In this document: one piece after another, positions 19,923 through 47,814 of the stretch
Layout of the letters: each line of letters starts with the position of its first letter
How positions within the stretch are numbered: position 1 is the stretch's first letter
Assembly: GCA_964291285.2 (NCBI GenBank)
Contig: OZ219787.1
Location: 640,001-704,000, forward strand
Direction: 5' to 3'
Length of the DNA stretch: 64,000 bases
Origin: Alphaproteobacteria bacterium
GTDB lineage: Bacteria > Pseudomonadota > Alphaproteobacteria > Bin95
Notes under the pieces: model-generated
Told to the model about the DNA's origin: nothing
Databases searched by the model: none
What the model saw: the letters and a program-made list of their open reading frames with translations, nothing else
Position numbers and translations under genes: made by a program

Positions 19923-20001
19923 GCGGCGCAGGCTTCCTTCGGACCGCTCCGCTCGCAGCGGCCGGAACCGGAAAGGCAATGACGGTTGCCCGTTTCGGGC
20001 G

Positions 20002-22305
20002 ATGGACCGGATGATGGCGCCCTCGGCCCTTGAGCGCTATATCGGCTTCGTTCTTCGACGCCGATGGACGGTCCTGCTGTTCGCCGGCCTGGTTATGCTG
20101 GCGGTGACGGCAGGCGCTCCCTTCATCGGCGTGACCAACGATTACCGCAGCCTTTTCGATGAGGACAATCCGCAGCTCGCCGCGCTGGACGCGCTGGAGG
20201 AGACCTACTCCGCATCCGACATTGCGCTCGTCGCCATTGCCCCGCGGCAGGGTTCGGTCTTCACCCGCGAGACCCTCGCCGCGGTTGAAGAGCTGACCGA
20301 AGCGGCCTGGCAGGCGCCGTTCTCAACCCGGGTCGATTCCCTGACCAACTATACCCACAGCGAGGCGTCCGAGGACGACCTGGTCGTCGGCCCGCTTGTC
20401 AGGAACGCGGGCGCGCTCGCCGACGAAGGGCTTGTACGGGTCGAAGAGATCGCGCTGAACGCAATCGACCTTGCCGGCCGACTGGTCTCCCATGACGGGC
20501 GCGTGGCGGGGCTGACGATAAACTTCTCCTTGTCCGACGACCGGGATGCTTCGGTCGCCGAGATCAACAATTTCCTCCGCGCCCTTCTGGAGCAGGCCCG
20601 CGCCGGCCATCCGGACCTCGACTACCACCTGACCGGCGACGTCGTCATGCACCAGGTCTTCGCCGACACGACCCAGGACGACGTGCGCACCCTCACGCCT
20701 CTGGTGTTCACGATAATTGCGGTTGCGATCGGGCTCCTGCTTCGTTCCTTGTCGGGCGCCCTCGCCCTCATCATCGCGCTGATATTCACCGTCAACACGA
20801 CGATGGGCTTCGCCGGCTGGGTCGGAACGGTACTCAACCCCGCCAACTCCGGCATCCCGATCATCGTGATGACCGTCGCCGTGGCGCATTCAATCCATAT
20901 CGTTGCAAGCGTTCTGGAGCGATTGGGACGTGGCCTCGGCAGGAGTGACGCCGTTGCCGAGGCGCTCCGCGACAATATCTGGCCCGTTTTCCTTACCACC
21001 GCGACCACTGCAATCGGATTCCTCAGCCTGAATGCGTCCGATTCGCCGCCCTTCCACGTGCTGGGCAACATGGTCGCTTTCGGAGTGCTGTGCGCCTTCC
21101 TCTACTCGGTTACCGTCCTGCCGGCCCTGCTTTCAATCCTGCCGCTGCGCGCGCCTCCCGCGCCGGGCGGGCAGCCCGGTTTTTTCGAACGGTTCGGCGA
21201 TTTCGTCGTGGAGCGCCGGAGGGCGCTGCTCATTTCCGTGCCCCTCCTCGCCGCGGTGCTGGTATCCGGCATCCCGCACATCGACCTGACGGACAACTGG
21301 CCGCGATATTTCGACGAGCGCTACGAGTTCCGGCGCGACACGGATTTCGTCATCGACAATCTGACGGGCATGGAAACGCTCGAATATTCGCTCGATTCGG
21401 GGCGCGACAACGGCATCACCGACCCCGGATATCTGCAGGCCGTGGATGCCTTTGCGGAGTGGGGCCGGGCGCAGCCGGAAGTGATCCATGTCCAGGCGTT
21501 CCCGGACATCATGAAGCGCCTCAACAGGAACATGCACGGCGACGACCCGGCCTACCACCGCCTGCCCGAGGACGGGGCCCTGGCGGCCCAGTACCTCCTG
21601 CTTTACGAGCTTTCGCTTCCCTTCGGCAGCGACCTCAACGACCGCATCGACGTCGCCAAGTCCGCAACCCGGCTGAGCGTCGTCACGCGAAGCCTGACCT
21701 CGCGGCAGCAGCGCGAACTCGATACGCGGGCCCAGCAATGGCTCCGGGCAAACGCGCCCGACCTGCTGACGGAAGCATCGGGGTTCACCATCGTTTCCGC
21801 GCATCTTTCGCAGCGGAACATCAGGAGCATGCTGACCGGGACAATCATCGCCATGGCGTTGATATCCCTCATACTGATCGGGATTTTCAGGAGTATCCGC
21901 CTGGGCCTCGTCAGCCTGGTGCCCAACTTCATCCCGGCCGCCATGACCATCGGCCTCTGGGGCTATCTTGTGGGGCGGGTCGGTCTCGCCGGGTCGGTGA
22001 TGACGGCGATCGCCTTCGGGATCGTCGTGGACGATACGATTCACTTCCTGACCGCCTATCTGAGGGCCCGCCGCGAGGGGCTCGATCCCGCCGGAGCCGT
22101 TCGCAGCGCGTTTCGTACAGTCGGCCGGGCGCTGTGGACCACCACGATAGTCCTGTCGCTCGGATTCCTGGTGTTTGCCTCATCCGGGTTCGAGGTAAGC
22201 TGGGCGCTCGGCCTGATGGTGGCGATCACACTCGTCTTCGCGCTGCTTGCCGACTTCCTGCTTCTCCCGGCCCTTCTGATGGCGATCGACCGCAGGAGCC
22301 CGTGA
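20002..22305 (+). CDS. MMPL / RND-family transporter
   Basis: Two repeats of TM + periplasmic loop + 5 TM; LTTATTAIGFLSL and GIVVDDTIHFL motifs. Confidence 0.92.
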   Translation: MDRMMAPSALERYIGFVLRRRWTVLLFAGLVMLAVTAGAPFIGVTNDYRSLFDEDNPQLAALDALEETYSASDIALVAIAPRQGSVFTRETLAAVEELTEAAWQAPFSTRVDSLTNYTHSEASEDDLVVGPLVRNAGALADEGLVRVEEIALNAIDLAGRLVSHDGRVAGLTINFSLSDDRDASVAEINNFLRALLEQARAGHPDLDYHLTGDVVMHQVFADTTQDDVRTLTPLVFTIIAVAIGLLLRSLSGALALIIALIFTVNTTMGFAGWVGTVLNPANSGIPIIVMTVAVAHSIHIVASVLERLGRGLGRSDAVAEALRDNIWPVFLTTATTAIGFLSLNASDSPPFHVLGNMVAFGVLCAFLYSVTVLPALLSILPLRAPPAPGGQPGFFERFGDFVVERRRALLISVPLLAAVLVSGIPHIDLTDNWPRYFDERYEFRRDTDFVIDNLTGMETLEYSLDSGRDNGITDPGYLQAVDAFAEWGRAQPEVIHVQAFPDIMKRLNRNMHGDDPAYHRLPEDGALAAQYLLLYELSLPFGSDLNDRIDVAKSATRLSVVTRSLTSRQQRELDTRAQQWLRANAPDLLTEASGFTIVSAHLSQRNIRSMLTGTIIAMALISLILIGIFRSIRLGLVSLVPNFIPAAMTIGLWGYLVGRVGLAGSVMTAIAFGIVVDDTIHFLTAYLRARREGLDPAGAVRSAFRTVGRALWTTTIVLSLGFLVFASSGFEVSWALGLMVAITLVFALLADFLLLPALLMAIDRRSP

Positions 22306-22353
22306 ACCGCCGGTGTGTCACGGCATGTCCTGGCCGGGTTCTTCGACGAAGCA

Positions 22354-22416
22354 CCTGTTCATATTTTTTGAATTATTTCTACTATAGAGCTTGATTTTTT
22401 AAAAGTTTATGGTAAT
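22354..22416 (+). promoter_or_regulatory. AT-rich promoter-like block at the start of element copy 1
   Basis: TTCA-N7-TGAA palindrome, then CTTGAT and GGTAAT, conserved with copy 2. Spacing is shorter than canonical sigma70, so promoter function is inferred. Confidence 0.45.
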
Positions 22417-22560
22417 TTGACCCTGAGGATGAGGGCGACGTTCGCGGGGCCGCCTCGTCTTCCGCGTCGGCGTCGGCGCGAAAAAAGCGGGGATTATCCG
22501 CTTGACTAAATGACGGCGAGTCCCCATATTCTGACTCAAGCAGTCGGAACGGAGGCCGTC

Positions 22561-23529
22561 ATGGCTGGCAAGCACTACCGCGAAGGCGTGACCATCATGG
22601 AGTTGGGAGAGATGTTCCCGACCGAGGAAAGCGCCCGCGAATGGTTTGAGGCGAAGGTCTGGCCGAACGGTCGCCATTGCCCGCGCTGCGGCCATACCGA
22701 GACGATTGAATGCACCGGCAACCCGCCGATGCCCTACTACTGCCCCGGCTGCAAGCGGCATTTCAGCGTCCGCATCGGCACCGTCATGGAGCGGTCCAAG
22801 CTCTCGTTCCGCAAGTGGGTTTGGGCGATCTACCTGCACCTGACTTCGCTCAAGGGCGTCTCCAGCGTGAAGCTGGGCCGGGACATAGGCGTCCGGCAGG
22901 CAACCGCATGGTTCATGCTCCAGCGCATCCGCGAAGCCTTCAAGCGCGACGACGAGCCGCCCATGGACGGGCCGGTAGAGGTGGACGAGGTCTATCTGGG
23001 CGGGCTGCGCAAGAACATGCACAAGGCGAAGCGGGAGAGCCTTGAGGGTCGCGGCGCTGTCGGCAAGGACATTGTCGTTGGCGTGAAGGACCGGGGCACG
23101 AAGCAGGTTCGCGCCCGCCATGTCCAGCACGCGGACGCGCCGTCGCTGGCAGGCTTCGCCGCTCACAACGCCCGCATCGGCACGACGGTCTATTCGGACG
23201 AGGCGACGGTCTATCGGGCGCTGCAAGTGTGGTTTCAGCATGAAGCGGTCAATCACTCCGCTGGCGAGTATGTCCGCCAGCAGGCGCATACCAACGGGAT
23301 CGAGAGCTTCTGGGCCATGTTGAAGCGGGCGCACAAGGGCGTCTATCACAAGTTCTCGCCGAAGCACCTTCACCGCTACATCGCGGAGTTCGCCGGGCGG
23401 CACAACATCCGCGAAGCCGGGACGCTGGCACAAATGGCGGGACTGGCGGCCGGCATGGTCGGGAAGCGCCTGACCTACGCCCGGCTGATTGCCGAGAACG
23501 GGCTGGCGAGCGGGGCGCGGCCATACTAG
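22561..23529 (+). CDS. IS1595 family (ISXO2-like) DDE transposase
   Basis: Zn ribbon CPRCG...YYCPGCKRHFSV, HTH, VEVDEVYLGG, VYSDE, HTNGIESFWAMLKR, YIAEF; GGAGG RBS before MAGKH. Confidence 0.96.
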   Translation: MAGKHYREGVTIMELGEMFPTEESAREWFEAKVWPNGRHCPRCGHTETIECTGNPPMPYYCPGCKRHFSVRIGTVMERSKLSFRKWVWAIYLHLTSLKGVSSVKLGRDIGVRQATAWFMLQRIREAFKRDDEPPMDGPVEVDEVYLGGLRKNMHKAKRESLEGRGAVGKDIVVGVKDRGTKQVRARHVQHADAPSLAGFAAHNARIGTTVYSDEATVYRALQVWFQHEAVNHSAGEYVRQQAHTNGIESFWAMLKRAHKGVYHKFSPKHLHRYIAEFAGRHNIREAGTLAQMAGLAAGMVGKRLTYARLIAENGLASGARPY

Positions 23530-24732
23530 TCACGCCTCTATCAGCCACGGGAACAGGGCGGCGCGCTTCTGCATACGCTCTTTCAGGAATTGCTCTTGCG
23601 AGCGCGTTCCCTTCGACGAATTGCAGGCGCCGCACAGCAGCCAAAGGTTCTCAAGGTGGTCGGTCCCGCCATGCGCTTGCGGGACGATATGGTCCACCGT
23701 CAGATTGCGCTTGCGGAAATGCTCCCCGCAACCGCCGCAAAAGCCTTCCTGCTGGCCGTAGAGCAAGTCCAGGTGCGTCCGGTAGTGGGGAAGGTCTCCC
23801 AGGTCCGTGCGGCCCGGCTGGTCCGTCCTGTGGACAACATCGCCGGTCTTGTAGAGCGGGATTTCGTCGAGGATGCCTTGCAGGCGCGTCGTGACGAGCT
23901 CGGCCGCCTTCGCGGAAATGTCGATGCCGATCCACTGGCGCTGTAGCCGCTCCGCCGCCACGGCGGCCGTCGCGCAACCGCAAAATGGGTCCAGCACGAC
24001 ATCGCCCTCGTTACTCGACGCCTTGATGATGCGGTCCAGAAGGGCAAGCGGCTTCTGCGTCGGATAGCCGACATATTGCGCCTTTTGGCGGGGCGCTATG
24101 GCGAGTCCATTTCCTTTCTCTTGCGGCCACCATGTTTCAGGGACTTTGCCGTCCGTCAGCCCATATTCGCCCTCGATAAATCCAGAACCGCGCAAACCGT
24201 CTTTGAAATTCGCCTTGGTCTTGCCATGGTGCTGAATACGCACGGCGTCGGCATTGAAGGTCCATGTCTCGCCGACTGAATACCAGTGGATTGTATCGTG
24301 CTTTCGGTTGAACTGGCGCATATGCGGTGAGCCGGGGCCAGTATAGCACCAGATAATCTCGTTCCGGTGATTAAGGCGTCCGAAAATCGCGTCCATGAGC
24401 ATCTTGAGATAATGCGACGCGAACGGGTCACAATGCAGATAGATGCTGCCGGTCGGCTTCAGGACACGCCGCATTTCGACGAGGCGTTGCGCCATCATGC
24501 CGAGATAGGCCGCCATGCCGCGCCCGTGCGCCAGCCGGGCCGCGTCGATTATGGCGAAAGTCGTCGGGTCACGCTCTTGCAGCAGTGCCAGATAGACGCG
24601 GTCCGCGTCGTCGAAGGTCCATGAGTCCTTGAAGGCAGCCCCGGCCGCCTCCGAGCCTATGGGTGCGCTATAGGTGCGGTTGGAGTTGAAGGGCGGGTCG
24701 AGATAGATGAGATCGACCGTGGCGCTGTTCAT
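23530..24732 (-). CDS. Site-specific N6/N4 DNA methyltransferase (beta class) fused to a C-terminal HNH endonuclease; true start probably further upstream
   Basis: Motif IV LIYLDPPF precedes YPTQKP and motif I LDPFCGCAT. The C-terminus CGGCG...LTVDHIVPQAHGGTDHLENLWLLCGACNSSKG is a Zn-binding HNH. The frame stays open upstream (NWRNRTIWTRDNLHVLRG) to TAG at 24820-24822. Confidence 0.9.
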   Translation of the reverse strand: MNSATVDLIYLDPPFNSNRTYSAPIGSEAAGAAFKDSWTFDDADRVYLALLQERDPTTFAIIDAARLAHGRGMAAYLGMMAQRLVEMRRVLKPTGSIYLHCDPFASHYLKMLMDAIFGRLNHRNEIIWCYTGPGSPHMRQFNRKHDTIHWYSVGETWTFNADAVRIQHHGKTKANFKDGLRGSGFIEGEYGLTDGKVPETWWPQEKGNGLAIAPRQKAQYVGYPTQKPLALLDRIIKASSNEGDVVLDPFCGCATAAVAAERLQRQWIGIDISAKAAELVTTRLQGILDEIPLYKTGDVVHRTDQPGRTDLGDLPHYRTHLDLLYGQQEGFCGGCGEHFRKRNLTVDHIVPQAHGGTDHLENLWLLCGACNSSKGTRSQEQFLKERMQKRAALFPWLIEA

Positions 24733-25167
24733 GCCTCTCAGGACATGGAGATTGTCGCGCGTCCAGATGGTGCGGTTGCGCCAGTTGGCTTCCTGCGTCG
24801 CCGCTGCGTCGCCTGCCTTCTACCCTATCAGATTTCCTCGCCATGCTTGATCTCCCGCTGTGAAGAGCACAGGCTAGGAGACGGGCTGATATTTAGTCAA
24901 ACGGATAATCCCCAAAAAAGCCGTTGAGAAACGGACGGGATAAGTGCGTCCCGTGCCACGCCCGCGGGCAGGTACAGGCGCAATCAGGCGCACGATACGC
25001 GCGGATAAGGGTCCCGCCGCCCGGATGAGCCGGCGGCGGAGAGGACGGAACGAAACCGGAGCGACAGGAAGAACCCATGCCGAAGACAGAGGGCCACCGA
25101 AACCGGATGGAATACCCGTACCCCATGCCCGAACGGACGACAGGGTATGCGTCGCGTGCATGCAAAC

Positions 25168-25240
25168 CATGACATCTCATGACACATCGCAGGAGAGGCT
25201 CGGGACGCCTCATGACAAAACATGACATCTCATGACATTC
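25168..25240 (+). repeat. Five CATGACA heptamers at 10-bp period, in two clusters
   Basis: Starts at 25168, 25178 and 25211, 25221, 25231. Confidence 0.9.
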
Positions 25241-25335
25241 CCGTGGAGTGGGCCCCTGGGTCGCTGCAGCCCTGCCGCACTGCCTCTGCCCGACTCCGGC
25301 CATGGTTTGCCGGCTCCGGGACCCGGCCCGTCGCG

Positions 25336-26136
25336 TCAGACCGCCTCCAGCGGCGGCGGAGGCGGCGGGTCGGCAAAGAGAGCCTGCGCCCCCACGATAT
25401 CGAGGTCATGCCCCGGCGAGCGGGCTATGGTGGCATGCACCGTGCCGGCGGCGAGTGCCATGGCCTCCGCCCAGCCGTCCCGCCACCGGGCCGCAAGCAG
25501 AGCGGCGAACAGGTCGCCCGCCCCGTAACCCGGATGCGCGACCTGCGGCACCACAGCCTGCCTGGCCTCGCCTTCCGATATGCCGACACAGGCGATGCGC
25601 CCCTCCCCCGCCGGGACGCTTGTCGCCACGACGAGGGAGGGCCCGAGCCCGGCGGCAACCTCGGCGGCTCGCGCCGGCCCGTCCACCTCCCGGGCCCCGA
25701 GCAGGGAAAGCTCGAACCGGTTGGGCGTTGCCGCCGCGGCCCGCGGCAGGAGTTCCCGCCGGATGGCTTCGGGCAGGTCCGGGGCCACGAACAGCCCCTT
25801 CGGATCGTCGCCCATGACCGGGTCGAGCAGGTAGGGCGCGCCCACACGGTCAACCGCGCGCGCCACCGCTTCCGCATTGGCGGCCGAGCCCAGATAGCCG
25901 GAAAGGACGAGATCGATGTCCTCCAGGAAACCGCGTTCCTCCAGCCCGCTCACAATGCGGTCGATGCTCTCGGCCGGATGCACCTCCCCCCGGAACCCGC
26001 CATGGGCGGGATGGTTGGAATAGGCGACCGTGTCGATGCAGGTGACCTGATGACCTAAGCGCTGGAGCACGAACACCGCCGTGCGATTGCCGACGAAACC
26101 GCGCGCCACCGAGGACTGGATCGATAGAATGTGCAT
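25336..26136 (-). CDS. pdxY: Pyridoxal kinase (PdxK/PdxY family)
   Basis: ILSIQSSVARGFVGN, DTVAYSNHPAHG, LSGYLG, DPVMGD, TPNRFEL, GAGDLF. Confidence 0.9.
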   Translation of the reverse strand: MHILSIQSSVARGFVGNRTAVFVLQRLGHQVTCIDTVAYSNHPAHGGFRGEVHPAESIDRIVSGLEERGFLEDIDLVLSGYLGSAANAEAVARAVDRVGAPYLLDPVMGDDPKGLFVAPDLPEAIRRELLPRAAAATPNRFELSLLGAREVDGPARAAEVAAGLGPSLVVATSVPAGEGRIACVGISEGEARQAVVPQVAHPGYGAGDLFAALLAARWRDGWAEAMALAAGTVHATIARSPGHDLDIVGAQALFADPPPPPPLEAV

Positions 26137-26185
26137 GATGTCCGCCCCGTCGCCGACGACTCGCCCGCACAAGGAATCCGCCTTC

Positions 26186-27061
26186 ATGCCCCAAGCCGTC
26201 AAGCCGCGCCGCAGCGCCCTCTACATGCCGGCCTCCCGCGCCGGCGCGCTGGAGAAGGCGAAGACGCTGCCTGCCGACGTGTTGATCTTCGACCTCGAAG
26301 ACGCCGTCAGCCCCGACGCAAAGGAAACGGCCCGCGCGCAGGCGGTGGCGGCGGCGCGTTCGGGAGCCTACGGGCCGCGCGAGATCGTCATTCGCGCCAA
26401 CGGCCTCGACACGCCCTGGGGGCACGACGACCTCGCGGCCATCGCCGGATCGGGCGCGGATGCGGCGCTGCTGGCGAAGGTCGAGAGCGAGGCGACGGTC
26501 CGCCAGGCCGCCGCCCTGCTCGAACGGCACGGCGCTCCTGCCGGAATGGCCGTCTGGGCGATGATGGAAACGCCGCTGGCCATGCTGCGCGCGGACGCTA
26601 TTGCAGGGGCCGGGCATCGCCTGTCCGCCCTCGTCATGGGCACGTCCGACCTGGCCAAGGAGCTGGGCGCGGCGCATACGCCGGACCGGCTGCCCTTCAT
26701 CACCGGGCTCGGCCTCTGCCTGCTGGCGGCGCGCGCCCACGGTCTCGCCGTCCTGGACGGGGTCCATCTGGACCTCGCCGACGACGAGGGATTCGCCGCC
26801 GCCTGCCGGCAGGGGGTCGAATTCGGCTTCGACGGCAAGACACTGATCCACCCGAAACAGGTCAGCCCCTGCAATGCCGCCTTCTCGCCGGGCCCCGGCG
26901 CCCTTGCCGAGGCGGAGCGGATCATCGCCGCCCATGCCGAAGCGGAGGCGGCGGGCCGGGGCGTCACCGTGGTGGACGGACGGCTGATCGAAAACCTGCA
27001 TGTCGAAATGGCGAGACGGACGGTCGCGCTCGCCGAAGCCGTCGCCGCGCGCCGGGGCTGA
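26186..27061 (+). CDS. CitE/malyl-CoA lyase-like CoA ester lyase (HpcH/HpaI family)
   Basis: RRSALYMPAS, DLEDAV, MMETP, MGTSDL, GFDGKTLIHPKQ. Confidence 0.92.
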   Translation: MPQAVKPRRSALYMPASRAGALEKAKTLPADVLIFDLEDAVSPDAKETARAQAVAAARSGAYGPREIVIRANGLDTPWGHDDLAAIAGSGADAALLAKVESEATVRQAAALLERHGAPAGMAVWAMMETPLAMLRADAIAGAGHRLSALVMGTSDLAKELGAAHTPDRLPFITGLGLCLLAARAHGLAVLDGVHLDLADDEGFAAACRQGVEFGFDGKTLIHPKQVSPCNAAFSPGPGALAEAERIIAAHAEAEAAGRGVTVVDGRLIENLHVEMARRTVALAEAVAARRG

Positions 27062-43547: not shown

Positions 43548-43612
43548 CGGTCCGGAACGGGCGGCCCCGTGGCCTGGCTCCGACGAAGGCGCTCCGAACA
43601 CCCCTCGCGATG

Positions 43613-43640
43613 TGTCATGAGATGTCATGAGATGTCATGA
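43613..43640 (-). repeat. Three TGTCATG (CATGACA) heptamers at 10-bp period
   Basis: TGTCATGAGA x2 + TGTCATGA at 43613, 43623, 43633. Confidence 0.9.
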
Positions 43641-43800
43641 TCCGCATGCGGGCGGCGCATATCCTGTGGTCCTTTCGGGCATGAGGCCGTTTCGCCGGAG
43701 CTGTGTTCGTCTGCATCCCCAATGTCGTTCCTCCACCGCGTTTCGTTCCGATTCGTTCCGTTCTCCCGCCGACCGGCCTGCCCGAGTGGCGGGACCCTAA

Positions 43801-45814
43801 CCCGACTTCCGCAACTCGGCTTGAGAATCGACTGATTTGACGGTTTTCCGGCGCGAGAAGTGTCGGATTTCGGTGCAGTACCTCTCGGGACCGGCTTGTA
43901 GTGCCGACCTACCCCCTTGATCGGGCTGGCGAAGATCCGGACGCTGCGCTGATGTTCGTGCGCTGCAAGAGACGCTTCAAGGACGGCAAGGAGCACCGCT
44001 ACTGGAGCGTTGTGGAGAACGTCCGGGTCCACGGCGGTCGGGTTGTTCAGCGTCAGGTGCTCTATCTCGGGGAGATCAACGACAGCCAGCGAGCGGCGTG
44101 GTGCCGCTCGATCGAGGTGGTGGAGGGCAAGTCGCGATCACGGCAGATGGCGCTGTTTCCCGAGGACCGGGAGGCGCCGGCGCTGACTTGCGAAGTGGTG
44201 AAGATCGACCTCTCGCAGGTGGCGCTTCACGACCCGCGCCAGTGGGGGGCGTGCTGGCTGGCGCTGTCCTTGTGGGACCGCCTGGACCTGGACCGCTTCT
44301 GGGAAGAGCGGCTGCCGGCGAGCCGGCAAGGCACGCGGTGGCTGGACATCCTGAAGATCCAGGTCTGCTACCGGCTGATCGACCCGGGCAGCGAGTGGCG
44401 CCTTCACCGTCACTGGTATGAGCACAGCGCGCTTCGCGATCTTCTGGGTGGCGAGCGGGCGATCGCCGACGACACACTCTATCGCTGTCTCGACAAGCTG
44501 CTGGCGCACAAGCAGGGCTTCTTCTCGTTTCTGCGCGACCGCTGGGCGACGCTGTTCGAGGCGCGCTTCGACGTGCTGCTCTACGACCTGACCTCGACCT
44601 ACTTCGAGAGCGATCCGCCGTTCGATGACAAGCGCCGCTTCGGCTACAGCCGGGACAAGCGGCCCGACTGCGTGCAGGTGGTGATCGCCCTGATCGTTAC
44701 GCCGCAGGGCTTTCCGCTGGCCTATGAGGTGATGCCGGGCAACACCTCCGACGACACCACGCTGGCGGCGTTCCTCAAGAAGATCGAGGATCAGTATGGC
44801 CGCTCCGAGCGGGTGTGGATCATGGACCGCGGCATCCCCACCGAGGAGACGCTGGCCGCGATGCGCGAGGGCGAGGCGCCGGTGCGCTACCTGGTGGGCA
44901 CGCCCAAGGGCCGGCTGACGCGGCTCGAGAAGGTGTTCCTGGGCCTGCCCTGGCAGGAGGTGCGCCAGTCCGTGACTGTCAAGCTTCTGGTCGAGGATGG
45001 CGAGCTCTACGTCCTGGTGCGCAGCGAGGGGCGGCAGGTGAAGGAACGCGGCATGCGCCGGCGCCGGCTGAAGAGGCTGTGGCGTCGATTGGCCGAGTTG
45101 CAAGGGCAGTCGAACAGCCGGGATCAGTTGTTGCTCAAGCTCGGCGCCGCCAGGAAGGAGGCCGGCCGGGCCTGGAGCCTGGTCGACATCACCGTGCCCG
45201 GGACCGACAGCGAACTCGCCGCCAACGGCTTCTCATTCCGCCTGCAGCGCGACCGGCTGCGCCAGGTCCGCCGCCGCGAGGGCCGTTACCTGCTGCGATC
45301 CAACATGGTCGCCGAAGACCCCGCCACGCTGTGGCATCTGTACATGCAGCTCGTCGAGATCGAGCAGGCGTTCAAGGAACTCAAGCACGACCTCGCGATC
45401 CGCCCCATCTTCCATCAGCGCCAAGAGCGCATCGAGGCGCATATCTTCGTCTCGTTCATCGCCTACTGCCTGCTGGTGACCCTGAAGAACCTCGCCCGGC
45501 CGCGCGCCCCGGGCCTCACCCCACGCGCCATCCTTGAGGCCTTCGCCACCATCCAGATGGTGGACGTCCATCTGCCAACCACCGACGGCCGGCACCTCGT
45601 CCTGCCGCGCCACACCCGGCCGAACAAGGAGCACGAGCTACTGCTGCAACAGCTCGGCATGACCTGGCCGCAGCAACCCGCACCCCGGATCTCCGCCTGA
45701 CGGCACACGGCGCCGCCTCTCCGTTCGCCGCCTTGTAGTGCCGACCCTCGGGGAGACGATCAAGGCTATTCAATGAGTTAGCATCCTCATGACCCCCGAG
45801 TTGCGGAAGTCGGG
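43801..45814 (+). mobile_element. IS1634-family insertion sequence, apparently intact
   Basis: Perfect 19-bp IRs CCCGACTTCCGCAACTCGG / CCGAGTTGCGGAAGTCGGG; flanking direct repeat CTAA at 43797-43800 and 45815-45818. Confidence 0.93.
43952..45700 (+). CDS. IS1634 family DDE transposase
   Basis: MFVRCKRRFKDGKEHRYWSVVEN, LLYDLTSTYFE, FGYSRDKRPD, WIMDRGIP, IEQAFKELK...RPIFHQ. Confidence 0.95.
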   Translation: MFVRCKRRFKDGKEHRYWSVVENVRVHGGRVVQRQVLYLGEINDSQRAAWCRSIEVVEGKSRSRQMALFPEDREAPALTCEVVKIDLSQVALHDPRQWGACWLALSLWDRLDLDRFWEERLPASRQGTRWLDILKIQVCYRLIDPGSEWRLHRHWYEHSALRDLLGGERAIADDTLYRCLDKLLAHKQGFFSFLRDRWATLFEARFDVLLYDLTSTYFESDPPFDDKRRFGYSRDKRPDCVQVVIALIVTPQGFPLAYEVMPGNTSDDTTLAAFLKKIEDQYGRSERVWIMDRGIPTEETLAAMREGEAPVRYLVGTPKGRLTRLEKVFLGLPWQEVRQSVTVKLLVEDGELYVLVRSEGRQVKERGMRRRRLKRLWRRLAELQGQSNSRDQLLLKLGAARKEAGRAWSLVDITVPGTDSELAANGFSFRLQRDRLRQVRRREGRYLLRSNMVAEDPATLWHLYMQLVEIEQAFKELKHDLAIRPIFHQRQERIEAHIFVSFIAYCLLVTLKNLARPRAPGLTPRAILEAFATIQMVDVHLPTTDGRHLVLPRHTRPNKEHELLLQQLGMTWPQQPAPRISA

Positions 45815-46026
45815 CTAATTCGCGCGTAATGTGCGCGCCCGCCCGCGCCTGCCCCCGCGCGCGTCTCGCGGCGGCGCGAATCGCGCGCCTGATTGCGCGC
45901 CCGCGCGCACGGGGCCCAAACGCAGGGCACACCTGTCCTGTCAGTTCCACAGAGGTCTTTGTTTCGCGCCGGCGCGACGCAGGAAATGAAGCAGCCCCGC
46001 GAATGCCGCTCCCCTCCTGCTGCCCT

Positions 46027-46090
46027 ATTCTAACACAATTTATCTCAGATCAAGTATCTAAGGAGAAATATTTCAAAAATAATGAACAGG
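46027..46090 (-). promoter_or_regulatory. AT-rich promoter-like block at the start of element copy 2
   Basis: Minus strand reads TTCA-N7-TGAA ... CTTGATC ... TGT-TAGAAT (extended -10-like), pointing into the element. Confidence 0.5.
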
Positions 46091-46104: not shown

Positions 46105-47814
46105 TTATCGCTCGTCGGCCTGGCGGGGGATCAGTTCCTCGCCGGCGCGGGAGTGGCCGATGATGCGGGTCAGCAACAGCACCGGCAGCACGCCCGCCAG
46201 CACGATGGCGAGCGCCGAGAGCGAGCATTCCTCCAGCAACTCGTCCGAAGCGAACTGATAGACGTTCGTCGCCAGTGTCTCGTAGTTGAAGGGCCGGAGG
46301 ATGAGCGTCATCGGCAGCTCCTTCATCGAATCGACGAAGACCAGCAGCGCCCCGGTCAGCACGCTGCCGCGCACGATGGGCAGATGCACGCGCGAGAGCC
46401 GCGAGAACGGCCCGTGGCCGAGCGTGCGCGCCGCGCTGTCGATATTGGGCGTCACTTTCGAGAGGCCCGCGTCGATGGTGCCATAAGCGAGCGCCAGGAA
46501 ACGCACGGTGAGCGCAGCCGAGACCGCGAACAGCGTTCCGCTGAAAACCAGCCCGGTGGAGGTGCCGAATTCGGCGCGCGCAAAGGCGTCGATGCCGCGG
46601 TCAAGGCCGGCGAGCGGGATCATCACGCCGAGCGCCAGCACCGCGCCCGGCACCGCGTAGCCGAGCGACACGAAGCGCGCCGCGCCCTGGGCGACTGGCG
46701 GCGCGCCGGCCCTGGCGCCATAGGCGAGCACAAGCCCGAACGCAGAAGCCGCCAGCGCGGCGATGCCGGCGAGGGTCAGGCTGTGCTCTGCATAGTTCAG
46801 GAAGTCGGACAATTGGTCCGGCTGCCAGGCCGTAACCGCATACCAGGCGAGCACCGCCGAGGGCAGGAGGAAGCCGAGCAGCACGGGCAGCGCGCAGGCC
46901 AGGAATGCGCCGGTGGCGACCCAGCCGGAAAGGCGGCGCGGCGCCAGCCGCCGGTAGCGCCCGCTCGTGTGGTGGAACCGCCGTTGGCGCCGGGCGGCGC
47001 GCTCCACCCAGATGAGACCGGCAATGACAACCAGAAGCACAAGCGCGAGCTGGGCGGCGCCGGCGGCATTGCCCATGTTCATCCAGATATCGAAAATGCC
47101 GACTGTGAAGGTGCGAAGCGCAAAGAATTCGACTGCGCCCAGATCGTTCAGGGTTTCCATGAGAGCGAGGATGACGCCGATGGCCACCGCCGGGCGGGCG
47201 AGCGGCAGCGCCACGCGCCGGAAGGCCTGCCAAGGCGTGCAGCCGAGCAGGCGGCTCGCTTCCAGCACGCAGATGTTCTGCTCGATGAAGGCCGCCCTGG
47301 AGAGCAGATAGACATAGGGGTAGAGCACCAGCGAGAACAGGGTGACGGCGCCGCCGAGCGAGCGTATCTGCGGGAACCAGTAGTCCTGCGCGCTGGTCCA
47401 GCCGAACGAGGCGCGCAGAAACACCTGCACCGCGCCGGCATATTCCAGCAGGTCGGTATAGACGTAGGCGACGACATAGGCGGGCATGGCGAGCGGCAGC
47501 AGCAGCAGCCATTCGAAGGCCCGGCTTCCCGGAAACCGGCACATGGTGACCAGCCAGGCCGTCGCGACGCCGATAGCCACCGTGCCGATCGCAACGCCGA
47601 GCGCAAGCAGGAAGGAATTCCATATGTAGTCCGGCAGCACCGTCGAGGCGAGGTGCCGCCAGATGTCGAGGGTCGGCGTGACGGCCGTCCAGATGACGGC
47701 GCAGATCGGCGCGGCCGCCAGCGCCGCCACCGACAAGGTTACCCAGGTCCAGCCGTCCGGTGTCGTGGTGCGCCAGGCCCGGCGCCGTGCGCTAGCTGCG
47801 CCGGCGACGGCCAT
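46105..47814 (-). CDS. Iron(III) ABC transporter permease (FbpB-like)
   Basis: LPLAMPAYVVAYVY, LYPYVYLL, EASRLLG, METLNDLG, KELPMTLILRPFNYETLA. Confidence 0.93.
   Translation of the reverse strand: MAVAGAASARRRAWRTTTPDGWTWVTLSVAALAAAPICAVIWTAVTPTLDIWRHLASTVLPDYIWNSFLLALGVAIGTVAIGVATAWLVTMCRFPGSRAFEWLLLLPLAMPAYVVAYVYTDLLEYAGAVQVFLRASFGWTSAQDYWFPQIRSLGGAVTLFSLVLYPYVYLLSRAAFIEQNICVLEASRLLGCTPWQAFRRVALPLARPAVAIGVILALMETLNDLGAVEFFALRTFTVGIFDIWMNMGNAAGAAQLALVLLVVIAGLIWVERAARRQRRFHHTSGRYRRLAPRRLSGWVATGAFLACALPVLLGFLLPSAVLAWYAVTAWQPDQLSDFLNYAEHSLTLAGIAALAASAFGLVLAYGARAGAPPVAQGAARFVSLGYAVPGAVLALGVMIPLAGLDRGIDAFARAEFGTSTGLVFSGTLFAVSAALTVRFLALAYGTIDAGLSKVTPNIDSAARTLGHGPFSRLSRVHLPIVRGSVLTGALLVFVDSMKELPMTLILRPFNYETLATNVYQFASDELLEECSLSALAIVLAGVLPVLLLTRIIGHSRAGEELIPRQADER

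Follow-up and report, generated by a model that had tools for sequence, protein, structure and literature searches.

A dispersed family of small directional gene cassettes in an alphaproteobacterial genome, with a conserved leader whose first hairpin probably folds as RNA

MITEs are non-autonomous internal-deletion derivatives of an autonomous parent insertion sequence (IS). REP/BIME, ERIC and Correia-type elements are intergenic repeats, and REPs are preferred targets of insertion sequences, including those of the IS110 family. Integron gene cassettes are single-ORF units with a conserved 3' sequence that are arrayed beside an integrase. At the RNA level, 5'-terminal stem-loops, such as that of the ompA 5' untranslated region, stabilize bacterial mRNAs. 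The Br-REP elements of Bradyrhizobium are described (PMC5082802) as high-copy intergenic repeats that are able to form RNA hairpins and that serve as IS landing sites. Here, we analyzed a window of 64,000 nucleotides from an alphaproteobacterial genome (contig OZ219787.1, positions 640,001 to 704,000), in which an initial annotation had described two element copies sharing three hairpins (A, B and C) and had proposed that these fold in an RNA transcribed from a promoter-like head.

The description of two copies had to be replaced, as the pair in the window represents two IS-disrupted members of a dispersed family. nhmmer returned 137 family matches in this genome, 37 of which spanned at least 90% of the 506-position model, and we counted 94 heads, 86 of them with a tail on the same strand. 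Among 113 tail clusters, 86 adjoined a same-strand family-model match; the other 27 were mostly tails of long-cargo or IS-split units as read from coordinates, with about 8 unaccounted for. Of 16 congeneric genomes, at least 12 contained cassette copies, and a family of roughly 100 copies per genome that is widespread in the genus is the best explanation. A literature search at the level of listings and abstracts found no account of the cassette or of multicopy small-terminase-like cassettes, and an intact copy had no match in the plasmid collection (blastn, distant mode).

Each unit opens with an AT-rich head, in which an extended -10 motif is conserved, and continues with a leader that is GC-rich and approximately 230 nt long, a Shine–Dalgarno (SD) sequence with an ATG, a cargo ORF and a tail. 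The leader contains a near-invariant core as well as hairpins A, B and C, and its median pairwise identity was 68% (150 of 155 unique leaders, HMM-column alignment). In the family alignment, the tail consists of 3–5 direct CATGACA repeats with a 10-bp period, which places TGA and ATG in all three frames. Units begin with TTGTTCA... and end with ...CATGACA, with CATGA(A/C)A-like motifs at both ends, and the lengths of those without an IS split run continuously from 353 to 1423 bp. This length series with both ends in common, in which few units have intact genes and many are gene-less or decayed, resembles MITEs and their parent IS, as do the intergenic position, the presence that varies among congeneric genomes and the orientation independent of neighboring genes. 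Unlike that system, however, the cassettes lack terminal inverted repeats and a clear target duplication, the gene of the longest units has no nuclease or recombinase fold, and the units are directional, with a putative promoter, a leader and a ribosome-binding site of their own. Compared by layout alone, they share with integron cassettes the single ORF and the conserved 3' sequence, but they carry their own promoter-like head and long leader and are scattered singly over five contigs rather than arrayed by an integrase, which argues against an integron cassette. The high copy number, intergenic position, RNA hairpin potential and use as IS landing sites, including by the IS110 family, recall REP/BIME, ERIC, Correia and Br-REP elements, whereas the cassettes are ten times longer, are not simple palindromes and include a promoter-like head and an ORF.

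Both copies in the window are short forms, split by different insertion sequences. Copy 1 lies on the forward strand and begins with a head at 22355–22419 (nhmmer match C3:662355-662486, model positions 3–129), in which the unit start TGTTCA (22356–22361) precedes a -35-like TTGATT (22391–22396) and a -10-like TAATTT (22413–22418); the transcript start is predicted near 22425 on the same strand. Hairpin A (22432–22456, forward), a predicted 5'-terminal stem-loop, has 5 Watson-Crick pairs, 1 G-T pair and 2 mismatches. Hairpin B (22463–22481) and an A-rich run occupy 22463–22488 (forward), of which 22481–22488 is one side of the 8-bp target duplication, AAAAAAGC, that flanks an IS1595-family element. 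This element of 2425 bp (22489–24913, forward) has terminal inverted repeats and splits the copy; it encodes a transposase on the forward strand (22510–23529; Pfam DDE_Tnp_IS1595 and Zn_ribbon_IS1595) and a passenger DNA methylase-HNH gene on the reverse strand (23530–24732; Pfam N6_N4_Mtase and HNH). In run X1, it formed its own contig at approximately 3.6 times the flanking depth. The leader resumes at 24922–25076 (forward) with hairpin C (25014–25039) and a GGA-rich stretch, and in a pairwise alignment of the IS-free copies its core was approximately 52 nt shorter than that of copy 2. The short ORF (25077–25172, forward; 31 codons, type 3, MPKTEGHRNRMEYP...) stops at the TGA within the first CATGACA of the tail (25168–25237, forward), whose repeats start at 25168, 25178 and then 25211, 25221 and 25231. 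Directly past the tail lies the motif TGGAGTGGGCCCCTGG (25244–25259, forward), which matches the left end of IS3-family elements sited there in other copies.

Copy 2 lies on the reverse strand (nhmmer match C3:685815-686088, model positions 4–259). Its head (46019–46088) contains a -35-like TTGATC (46053–46048) and, as an extended -10, TGT followed by a -10-like TAGAAT (46032–46027); the transcript start is predicted near 46020, reverse strand. Hairpins A (46012–45988; 6 Watson-Crick pairs and 2 G-T) and B (45981–45965) occupy 45965–46012 and are followed by the mid-leader (45815–45964), which holds the near-invariant core (GCAATCAGGCG...CGCGCC) and ends at the IS junction TTAG; all of these are on the reverse strand. 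The insertion sequence of 2014 bp (43801–45814, forward) is flanked by TTAG and splits the copy at model position 256–259, the same insertion position as in other copies, and its 599-aa DDE transposase is encoded at 43901–45700 (forward; Pfam DDE_Tnp_1). The distal part (43590–43796, reverse) comprises hairpin C (43794–43764), a degenerate start region and three CATGACA repeats (43639–43613); copy 2 has no terminal CATGACA repeat cluster. The strings, coordinates and base changes that the initial annotation gave for the three hairpins were correct throughout in both copies. The 9-nt loops of hairpin A differ only at the first base, and hairpin B has T-G wobbles and a loop that differs in length between the copies.

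We assessed the coding potential behind the leader. Of 68 uninterrupted copies, 63 had an SD sequence and ATG after the leader, and the cargo was a 329–336 aa small-terminase-like protein, a 218–234 aa acidic protein or a decayed remnant. Ten copies had an intact ORF of 329–336 aa, with a dN/dS of 0.21 for residues 1–135; for residues 136–300, mean dN divided by mean dS was 0.35 (median 0.29). This protein matched Pfam Terminase_2 at 42.7 bits (cut-off 26.1) and PHROG 51 at 8.6e-12, and all 12 Terminase_2 matches in the genome fell within cassettes. Automatic pipelines label the cassette gene 'terminase small subunit'. In the structure model, residues 11–110 had pLDDT values of 75–97, the C-terminal half was acidic and mostly helical or disordered, and no nuclease, recombinase or other catalytic fold was seen. 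Small terminases made up all of the best 10 Foldseek rows, and the SF6 DNA-binding domain aligned with a TM score of 0.85 (rmsd 1.5 Å, 56 columns, 39% identity). The N-terminal helix-turn-helix (HTH) domain followed by a long helix is as in phage small terminases (Terminase_2 / SPP1-SF6 G1P). In contrast to these, the cargo genes have no large-terminase or phage neighbor, occur in 10–12 copies per genome behind a common leader and encode that acidic, mostly helical or disordered C-terminal half. For the acidic cargo protein, ESM Atlas gave scores of 0.81–0.83 to unnamed clusters, below the level of a lead.

Short copies retained N-terminal remnants of the long cargo ORFs, and the distal part of their ORF was read in two different frames; therefore, the small ORFs may not be functional. 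With the frame free to vary, nucleotide conservation exceeds protein conservation in the short copies, as would be expected of a stand-alone structured non-coding RNA gene of approximately 450 nt with its own promoter, in which the hairpins are the functional fold. The conserved promoter motif, the covariation of hairpin A described below and leaders somewhat more stable than shuffles are also in line with such a gene. We nevertheless consider it improbable: the same leader precedes SD and ATG in nearly all uninterrupted copies and precedes the intact ORFs under purifying selection, the variable middle region changes length by hundreds of bases, hairpin A is the only helix consistently predicted, and four intact copies gave no Rfam match at E <= 1. 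Rfam at gathering thresholds found only 3 tRNAs in the window. The best reading is still a transcribed, folded RNA on the head-to-tail strand, as initially proposed, yet this RNA would be a 5' untranslated mRNA leader instead of a stand-alone molecule, because of the start signals in 63 of 68 copies and the ten intact ORFs under purifying selection.

Next to the leader stands the promoter-like head, the motifs of which were kept across the family. The -35 TTG was present, base by base, in 76, 80 and 78 of 83 heads, the TG of the extended -10 in 64 and 60, and the last T of the -10 in all 83, and the TAnnAT motif was retained across family heads. A simple promoter scan, however, called no site in either window head, and in copy 2 the head was missed because its spacer is 15 nt. 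The promoter-like character thus held at the level of the family motif but was not picked up by the scan, and transcription from the head may be proposed from motif conservation. We compared RNA and DNA runs (one and three, respectively) over window positions 20000–26500; the RNA run was the sole one with related sequence and was available as contigs. Contigs of this metatranscriptome run (X23) covered the RND gene (20202–22051) and none covered 22387–22603, although contigs cannot show absence, starts or strand.

We tested pairing on 115 distinct leaders (alignment A1). Gap placement in the MAFFT alignments made RNAalifold miss obvious stems (-12 kcal/mol on A1, 2 pairs on alignment A2); therefore, the helices were specified by hand. 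Across all helices, 80.6% of cells paired in register, compared with 35–56% when the 3' partner was slid (six registers). Cells with double changes numbered 112, against 63 +/- 6 in shuffled alignments (0 of 500 reached this value) and 50–86 in slid registers, although the shuffle control ignores relatedness and three subfamilies can inflate these cell counts. The number of pairs with a double change was 19, practically the shuffle mean of 18.8 (307 of 500 reached it). In an all-against-all analysis of mutual information on 155 leaders, the subfamily signal dominated and the helices were not outlined.

Hairpin A was the clearest of the helices. Here, 85.8% of cells paired and double changes occurred at 6 of 9 pairs; pair 23–45 was AU in 62, GC in 20 and GU in 11 sequences, and pair 18–49 was AT in 32 and GC in 27. 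It was the sole helix consistently predicted in the 115 single-sequence ensembles, with a mean ensemble pair probability of 0.52–0.73. In hairpin B, 74.7% of cells paired, with double changes at all 5 contiguous pairs and none at the sixth, outer pair. Hairpin C paired in 69–76% of cells, and compensatory changes in excess of the controls were not observed in it or in the core helices. The compensatory changes that had been noted between two copies were borne out for hairpin A and in the total cell count, which lay above the shuffles, but not in the pair count; they were weaker in hairpin B, and hairpin C was subfamily-specific. Among the three hairpins, only A has real covariation support; on these 115 leaders, A alone, located at the predicted 5' end of the transcript, appears well supported.

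The hairpins might have been chance products of CG-rich palindromic sequence at 67% G+C, inherited by descent with the pairing unselected. The z-scores were modest for the segments (A+B -1.26; C -1.85), and both the shuffle-level number of double-change pairs and the dominance of subfamilies in mutual information are what such an origin would give. However, pairing and double-change cells fell away in slid registers, and hairpin A still pairs at the 68% median identity of the leaders; we give this explanation very little credence.

Like the ompA-type 5' stabilizer, hairpin A lies a few nucleotides beyond the predicted start of the transcript, and no other helix is as well conserved; unlike in that stabilizer, its loop sequence is itself conserved. 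Positions T30, C31, C32 and G33 of the loop were kept in 105–111 of 113–114 sequences, which suggests recognition by a factor.

We next considered the strand. It had been argued that the G-U wobbles work only on the strand that the head would transcribe. G-U cells outnumbered A-C cells in hairpin A (88 vs 41) and weakly in hairpin B (54 vs 45), whereas no such excess was observed in hairpin C (50 vs 103), which favored neither strand, or in the GATAC hairpin (8 vs 73); the wobble argument thus does not generalize. For the A, A+B and C segments, folding was 1.3–3 kcal/mol better on the element strand, and the whole-leader RNAalifold energy was alike on both strands (-105 vs -108). Measured over 26 of the 115 leaders, stability exceeded that of dinucleotide shuffles modestly (mean z -2.16 for the element strand, -1.71 for the opposite strand). 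In the near-invariant core and in the GATAC hairpin, variation was one-sided or absent, which a sequence-specific protein or DNA site would explain no less well than RNA.

These observations bear on whether the palindromes act as DNA, as recognition or extrusion sites for cassette copying or as IS targets, with RNA folding incidental. The inconsistent wobble asymmetry and a core that is nearly invariant without covariation are compatible with this, as are the CATGA(A/C)A-like motifs at both ends and the fixed model positions at which insertion sequences landed: an IS110-family element at position 151 in 3 copies, with an identical gap of 1124 bp, the DDE element at 256–259 in at least 4 copies, and the TGGAGTGGGCCCCTGG IS3-like end after 22 of 86 tails. 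We regard a purely DNA-level role as rather unlikely, as G-U cells are twice as frequent as A-C cells in hairpin A, whose folding is more favorable on the element strand, and the searches turned up no partner recombinase or transposase. Y1_Tnp (PF01797) had no match in the genome, and the control was positive in 6 of 14 genomes; a RAYT-type Y1 transposase, as associated with REP/BIME, was thus not found in this genome. The Y2_Tnp profile matched nowhere, controls included, so it has no bearing on the genome.

Cassette positions were also examined across genomes. Relative to neighboring genes, cassettes were oriented nearly at random (13/10/7/7 of 37). Of two orthologous sites, the one after the RND gene was filled in 4 genomes, in 1 of them with a different subfamily, and empty in one, and another genome had a tail remnant where its relative is empty. 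The site after an ABC permease gene was filled in G007 and empty in G012, and there the insertion supplies the stop codon of the gene. Both orthologous sites examined were thus polymorphic, with filled and empty forms. Terminal inverted repeats were not found in the units; by eye, only 7 of 9 bases matched the reverse complement, and the repeats of the tail run in direct orientation. No flanking bases were shared at 6 near-identical copies or between filled and empty sites, although a short target duplication could be missed because the boundaries are fuzzy. No unit encoded a transposase or recombinase, the longest uninterrupted units encoding only the Terminase_2-like or the acidic protein, and no tail repeats were found as inverted pairs bounding a larger autonomous element. 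With terminal inverted repeats, a clear duplication and a transposase or recombinase all lacking, we infer mobility from the distribution only.

The cargo protein raised the idea of a domesticated or satellite-like packaging module, in which the small-terminase-like protein would bind CATGACA as a pac-like site and the approximately 100 sites would seed packaging of host DNA into phage-like particles. In favor of this, the N-terminal domain is similar to that of SPP1/SF6-type small terminases, purifying selection acts on the protein, and the tail offers 3–5 direct repeats at one helical turn. Against this, homology among six copies stopped at the cassette tail, phage or large-terminase genes adjoined no unit, and the leader core had 0 matches on viral contigs, where only three ordinary phage small terminases matched the protein at 31–34% identity in the HTH. 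The genome gave no match to the RcGTA marker GTA_TIM, with a positive control, and the small-terminase-like genes that are multicopy in other alphaproteobacterial genera (7 and 4 copies) have no repeat tail. Such a module therefore seems highly improbable. A link to gene-transfer agents was not supported by the same marker.

A mobile or recombining cassette with an mRNA 5' leader would be the best reading of the family. We consider it reasonably probable that both copies in the window belong, as short, decayed and IS-disrupted members, to a small directional gene-cassette family, with the hairpins in a conserved leader and hairpin A probably an RNA structure. Full-length units of approximately 1.3 kb would code for a small-terminase-like DNA-binding protein whose C-terminal part is acidic, an unrelated acidic protein would be the product of other units, and most units, including both window copies, would be internal-deletion derivatives of 350–600 bp. 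Transcription would start from the head, which has a promoter motif of the extended -10, sigma-70 type, and proceed across the leader to the cargo ORF, and the CATGACA tail would stop every reading frame. In the RNA, hairpin A would most likely form a stem-loop at the 5' end whose loop is conserved, a typical mRNA-stabilizing or regulator-binding structure, and may serve in either way. Hairpins B and C are GC-rich palindromes for which an RNA role is plausible, C being just upstream of the ribosome-binding site. More tentatively, and with considerable doubt, the family could be a previously undescribed selfish element. Its only gene would be small-terminase-like, it would have its own promoter and structured leader, direct CATGA(A/C)A-type bounds and MITE-like gene-less derivatives, and it would act as a landing pad for at least three IS families, with relatives in other alphaproteobacterial genera.

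The cassette poses the question of how a unit with no recognizable transposase multiplies, and its more than 100 leader variants provide a natural set for tests of compensatory logic in a 5' stem-loop. If the cassette reading is true, roughly 1% of the genome would consist of one uncharacterized cassette family that has brought outward-independent promoters to about a hundred intergenic sites, with consequences for annotation, for the transcription of neighboring genes and for IS dynamics.

The three leader stem-loops of the initial annotation were re-read in the window sequence, and their positions and sequence strings were right. Hairpin A lies at 22432-22456 (plus) in copy 1 and 46012-45988 (minus) in copy 2, hairpin B at 22463-22481 and 45981-45965, and hairpin C at 25014-25039 and 43794-43764. 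Copy 1 is interrupted by a 2425-bp IS1595-family element (22489-24913) with an 8-bp duplication and a DNA methylase-HNH passenger gene, and copy 2 by a 2014-bp insertion sequence (IS) at 43801-45814, which encodes a 599-aa DDE transposase and has TTAG on its flanks. When the insertions were removed computationally, the copies were alignable across ~470 nt, copy 1 lacking ~52 nt of the middle part of copy 2. The copies had been described as a pair; they are instead members of a dispersed family of cassettes. Searches of the genome with either copy part returned dozens of matches, and nhmmer with a 506-position profile returned 137, of which 37 span at least 90% of the profile; its first 300 positions are covered by about 93-101 copies. 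The genome holds 94 heads, 86 of them followed by a same-strand repeat tail. Among 113 tail clusters, 86 adjoin a same-strand family-model match; by coordinates, the other 27 are mostly tails of long-cargo or IS-split units, with ~8 unaccounted for.

Outside this genome, among the matches listed, at least 12 of the 16 other congeneric genomes matched a 3.2-kb query in its element part. An exact scan for the 25-letter leader core returned at least 103 stretches; 78 of the 80 listed lie in assemblies labelled uncultured Alphaproteobacteria or Rhodospirillales, and of the remaining two, one lies on a 1.8-kb contig and one on a Bryobacterales-labelled contig. On the latter (L119:5683-6946), model positions 165-466 occur three times in tandem behind one full leader, a local amplification of inner cassette sequence; the contig is binned to another phylum, which may reflect mis-binning or transfer. 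Cassette-related sequence is also present in runs labelled sponge metagenome. Rfam gave no match for the cassette in the window, nor for four intact copies at E <= 1, and no description of such cassettes was found in the literature searched.

The cassette is directional. It begins with TTGTTCA, followed by a near-palindromic GAAATAATTC and then a promoter-like motif. Conservation within the AT-rich head peaks at the key bases of this motif: among 83 heads, the -35-like TTG is kept, base by base, in 76, 80 and 78, the extended -10 TG in 64 and 60, and the final T of TAtgAT in all 83. A simple promoter scan called no site in either window head because the spacer is 15 nt. Hairpin A starts ~7 nt past the -10 motif; behind it lie hairpin B, an A-run and a GC-rich stretch whose core hardly varies, then a hairpin with a GATAC loop, and hairpin C. 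Of 68 uninterrupted leaders, 63 are followed by a Shine-Dalgarno sequence and ATG. CATGACA repeats with a 10-bp period end the cassette; those at 25211, 25221 and 25231 in the window bring TGA and ATG into each of the three frames. Just 3' of the tail, at least six copies (C1:293090, C3:319350, C1:227591, C4:370685, C3:917465 and C4:739606) carry a ~200-nt module that starts (G/A)GG(A/C/G)CGGTCCCGCCGCC and runs into GC-rich repeats; it is absent from the orthologous locus in genome G007.

Cassettes not interrupted by an IS form a size continuum of 353-1423 bp, and their leader-to-tail content varies. Ten units hold an intact ORF of 329-336 aa. Its N-terminal 60-70 residues exceed the curated cut-off for Pfam Terminase_2 and also match PHROG small-terminase families; the genome has 12 Terminase_2 matches, every one of them within a cassette. 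A structure model from 28 sequences was confident at residues 11-110, where a helix-turn-helix precedes a long helix; past this region it contains helices and disorder alone. In Foldseek, small terminases took all ten top ranks, although the lowest E-value was no better than 3.7e-3. Across the ten copies, dN/dS was 0.21 in the N-terminal domain, and mean dN over mean dS was 0.35 (median 0.29) in the acidic part, indicating that this protein is maintained by selection. The second cargo, an acidic protein of 218-234 aa (L189:772-1428, plus; L190:1821-2525, minus), repeats a YDGSEDE(F/Y)H ... TPEF(R/Y)AW motif; it matched no Pfam family and, weakly, only PHROG 31793 (unknown function), along with Atlas scores of 0.81-0.83. 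Many short units retain N-terminal remnants of either cargo, and others, including the window copies, carry an ORF of 31-41 codons, the distal part of which falls in either of two frames. This suggests that the short units derive from the cassette by internal deletion.

Among 8000 candidates scored in public data, 312 clusters of cargo-like proteins were found at E <= 1e-5, those with a name always being 'terminase small subunit'; 9 of 301 sampled genomes of the class had a cargo match. In two other alphaproteobacterial genera, a small-terminase-like gene of 274-293 aa with an acidic C-terminal part is multicopy, with seven copies in G027 (L203:2012-2836) and four in G287 (L210:1778-2659, minus), in repeat units of ~1.05-1.2 kb. 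The G027 unit (~1.05 kb, 84-91% identity) has a promoter-like CTTGTA...CATGATGG at its very start. This start resembles that of the cassette, whereas, with the G027 ends aligned, its leader is short and the CATGACA tail is missing. The G287 copies match across ~1.05-1.2 kb at ~77% identity; in one, the gene is flanked by 195-bp direct repeats.

The cassette is a dispersed and probably mobile element. By crude gene calls, its orientation relative to neighbouring genes is near random (13, 10, 7 and 7 of 37). The site 3' of an RND transporter gene holds a cassette in G006, G010 and G007, is occupied by a different subfamily ~290 nt further downstream in G012, and is empty in G005; in the same comparison, G009 has a tail remnant at a position where G004 is empty. 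The site 3' of an ABC permease gene is occupied in G007 and empty in G012; the core motif lies nearby in G015, and a scan for the exact motif alone found none in G010 or G016. In the window, inserted sequence has taken the place of the end of the permease reading frame and supplies its stop codon (46105-46120 compared with L217:1440-1530), which sits in sequence absent from the empty G012 site. A tandem array of at least ten CGCCGAG heptamers lies ~200 nt 3' of the orthologous cassette in G007 (L216:3070-3150). Neither terminal inverted repeats nor a target duplication was found at the cassettes. In six near-identical long copies, homology fades gradually at the AT-rich head and drops sharply at or shortly past the last CATGACA. 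Neither the uninterrupted units of this genome nor 77 units of other genomes were found to contain a transposase or recombinase, and no Y1 transposase was found in the genome.

We then assigned six helices by hand in an alignment of 115 distinct leaders, drawn from this genome and others, and counted pairs. Paired cells amounted to 80.6%, compared with 35-56% in six slid registers and 78.7 +/- 0.2% in shuffles, a control that ignores the relatedness of the leaders. Cells with both sides changed numbered 112 against 63 +/- 6 in shuffles (0 of 500 reached 112) and 50-86 when slid; pairs with a double change numbered 19 against 18.8 in shuffles (307 of 500 reached 19). The compensatory changes proposed from two copies held mainly for hairpin A, in which 85.8% of cells are paired and six of nine pairs show double changes (one pair reads AU 62, GC 20, GU 11; an outer pair AT 32, GC 27). 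The core helix is invariant throughout, and the GATAC hairpin varies on its 5' side alone. Hairpin B is paired in 74.7% of cells, with double changes, largely between subfamilies, at all five contiguous pairs; its sixth, outer pair shows none and is 43% paired. Hairpin C is paired in 69-76%, and two subfamilies have other hairpins instead. In 115 single-sequence ensembles, hairpin A alone stands out (mean pair probability 0.52-0.73); hairpin C reaches ~0.31 and no other helix exceeds 0.3. Loop bases of hairpin A are conserved in 105-111 of 113-114 sequences.

It had also been argued that G-U wobbles single out the strand read from the head. G-U and A-C cells numbered 88 and 41 in hairpin A, 54 and 45 in B, 50 and 103 in C, and 8 and 73 in the GATAC hairpin. 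Folding energies on the element and opposite strands were -13.7 and -11.8 kcal/mol for the A segment, -27.8 and -24.8 for A+B, and -21.0 and -19.7 for C; RNAalifold gave near-equal energies for the whole leader (-105 vs -108), and MFE z-scores in 26 of the 115 leaders were -2.16 and -1.71. The argument is therefore valid for hairpin A and not as a general rule. The transcribed strand is better supported by anatomy, since the promoter motif, the ribosome-binding site and the ORFs under selection share the head-to-tail direction.

DNA-level roles for the leader palindromes and core are a serious rival, and IS insertions at fixed cassette positions fit them. An IS110-family element (DEDD_Tnp_IS110 and Transposase_20; gene L063:1208-2341, minus) occupies precisely model position 151 in three copies with an identical 1124-bp gap (C1:640190/641314, C2:876820/877944 and C3:1276528/1277652), a pattern suggesting that it targets a specific sequence in the leader. 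Three further copies are broken at or near this position (142-151). A single kind of IS, with a 582-599 aa DDE_Tnp_1 protein, lies at model position 256-259, beside TTAG, in at least four copies (window copy 2, C3:941317/943369, C1:257955/261224 and C4:195437/199366), and several more are broken off there. A few bases past the last CATGACA, 22 of 86 tails are followed by a TGGAGTGGGCCCC-type motif, which in the window lies at 25244-25259. Some copies carry an IS3-family element there, with OrfA starting MRKHRTHSMAFKRQ, and the motif forms the left end of that element; others, the window copy among them, have the motif alone. The IS1595-family passenger is a 400-aa fusion of an N6_N4 DNA methylase and an HNH nuclease, and this protein also occurs within a second cassette (C3:1311904); the element forms its own contig at ~3.6x flanking depth in sequencing run X1.

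Judged from sequence, hairpins A, B and C appear to belong to the predicted 5' leader of the cassette mRNA. The near-invariant core looks like a candidate sequence-specific site, and hairpins B and C are conserved palindromes that could act as either RNA or DNA. Hairpin A most likely does form as a stem-loop at the 5' end of the RNA, where it may have a stabilising or factor-binding role.
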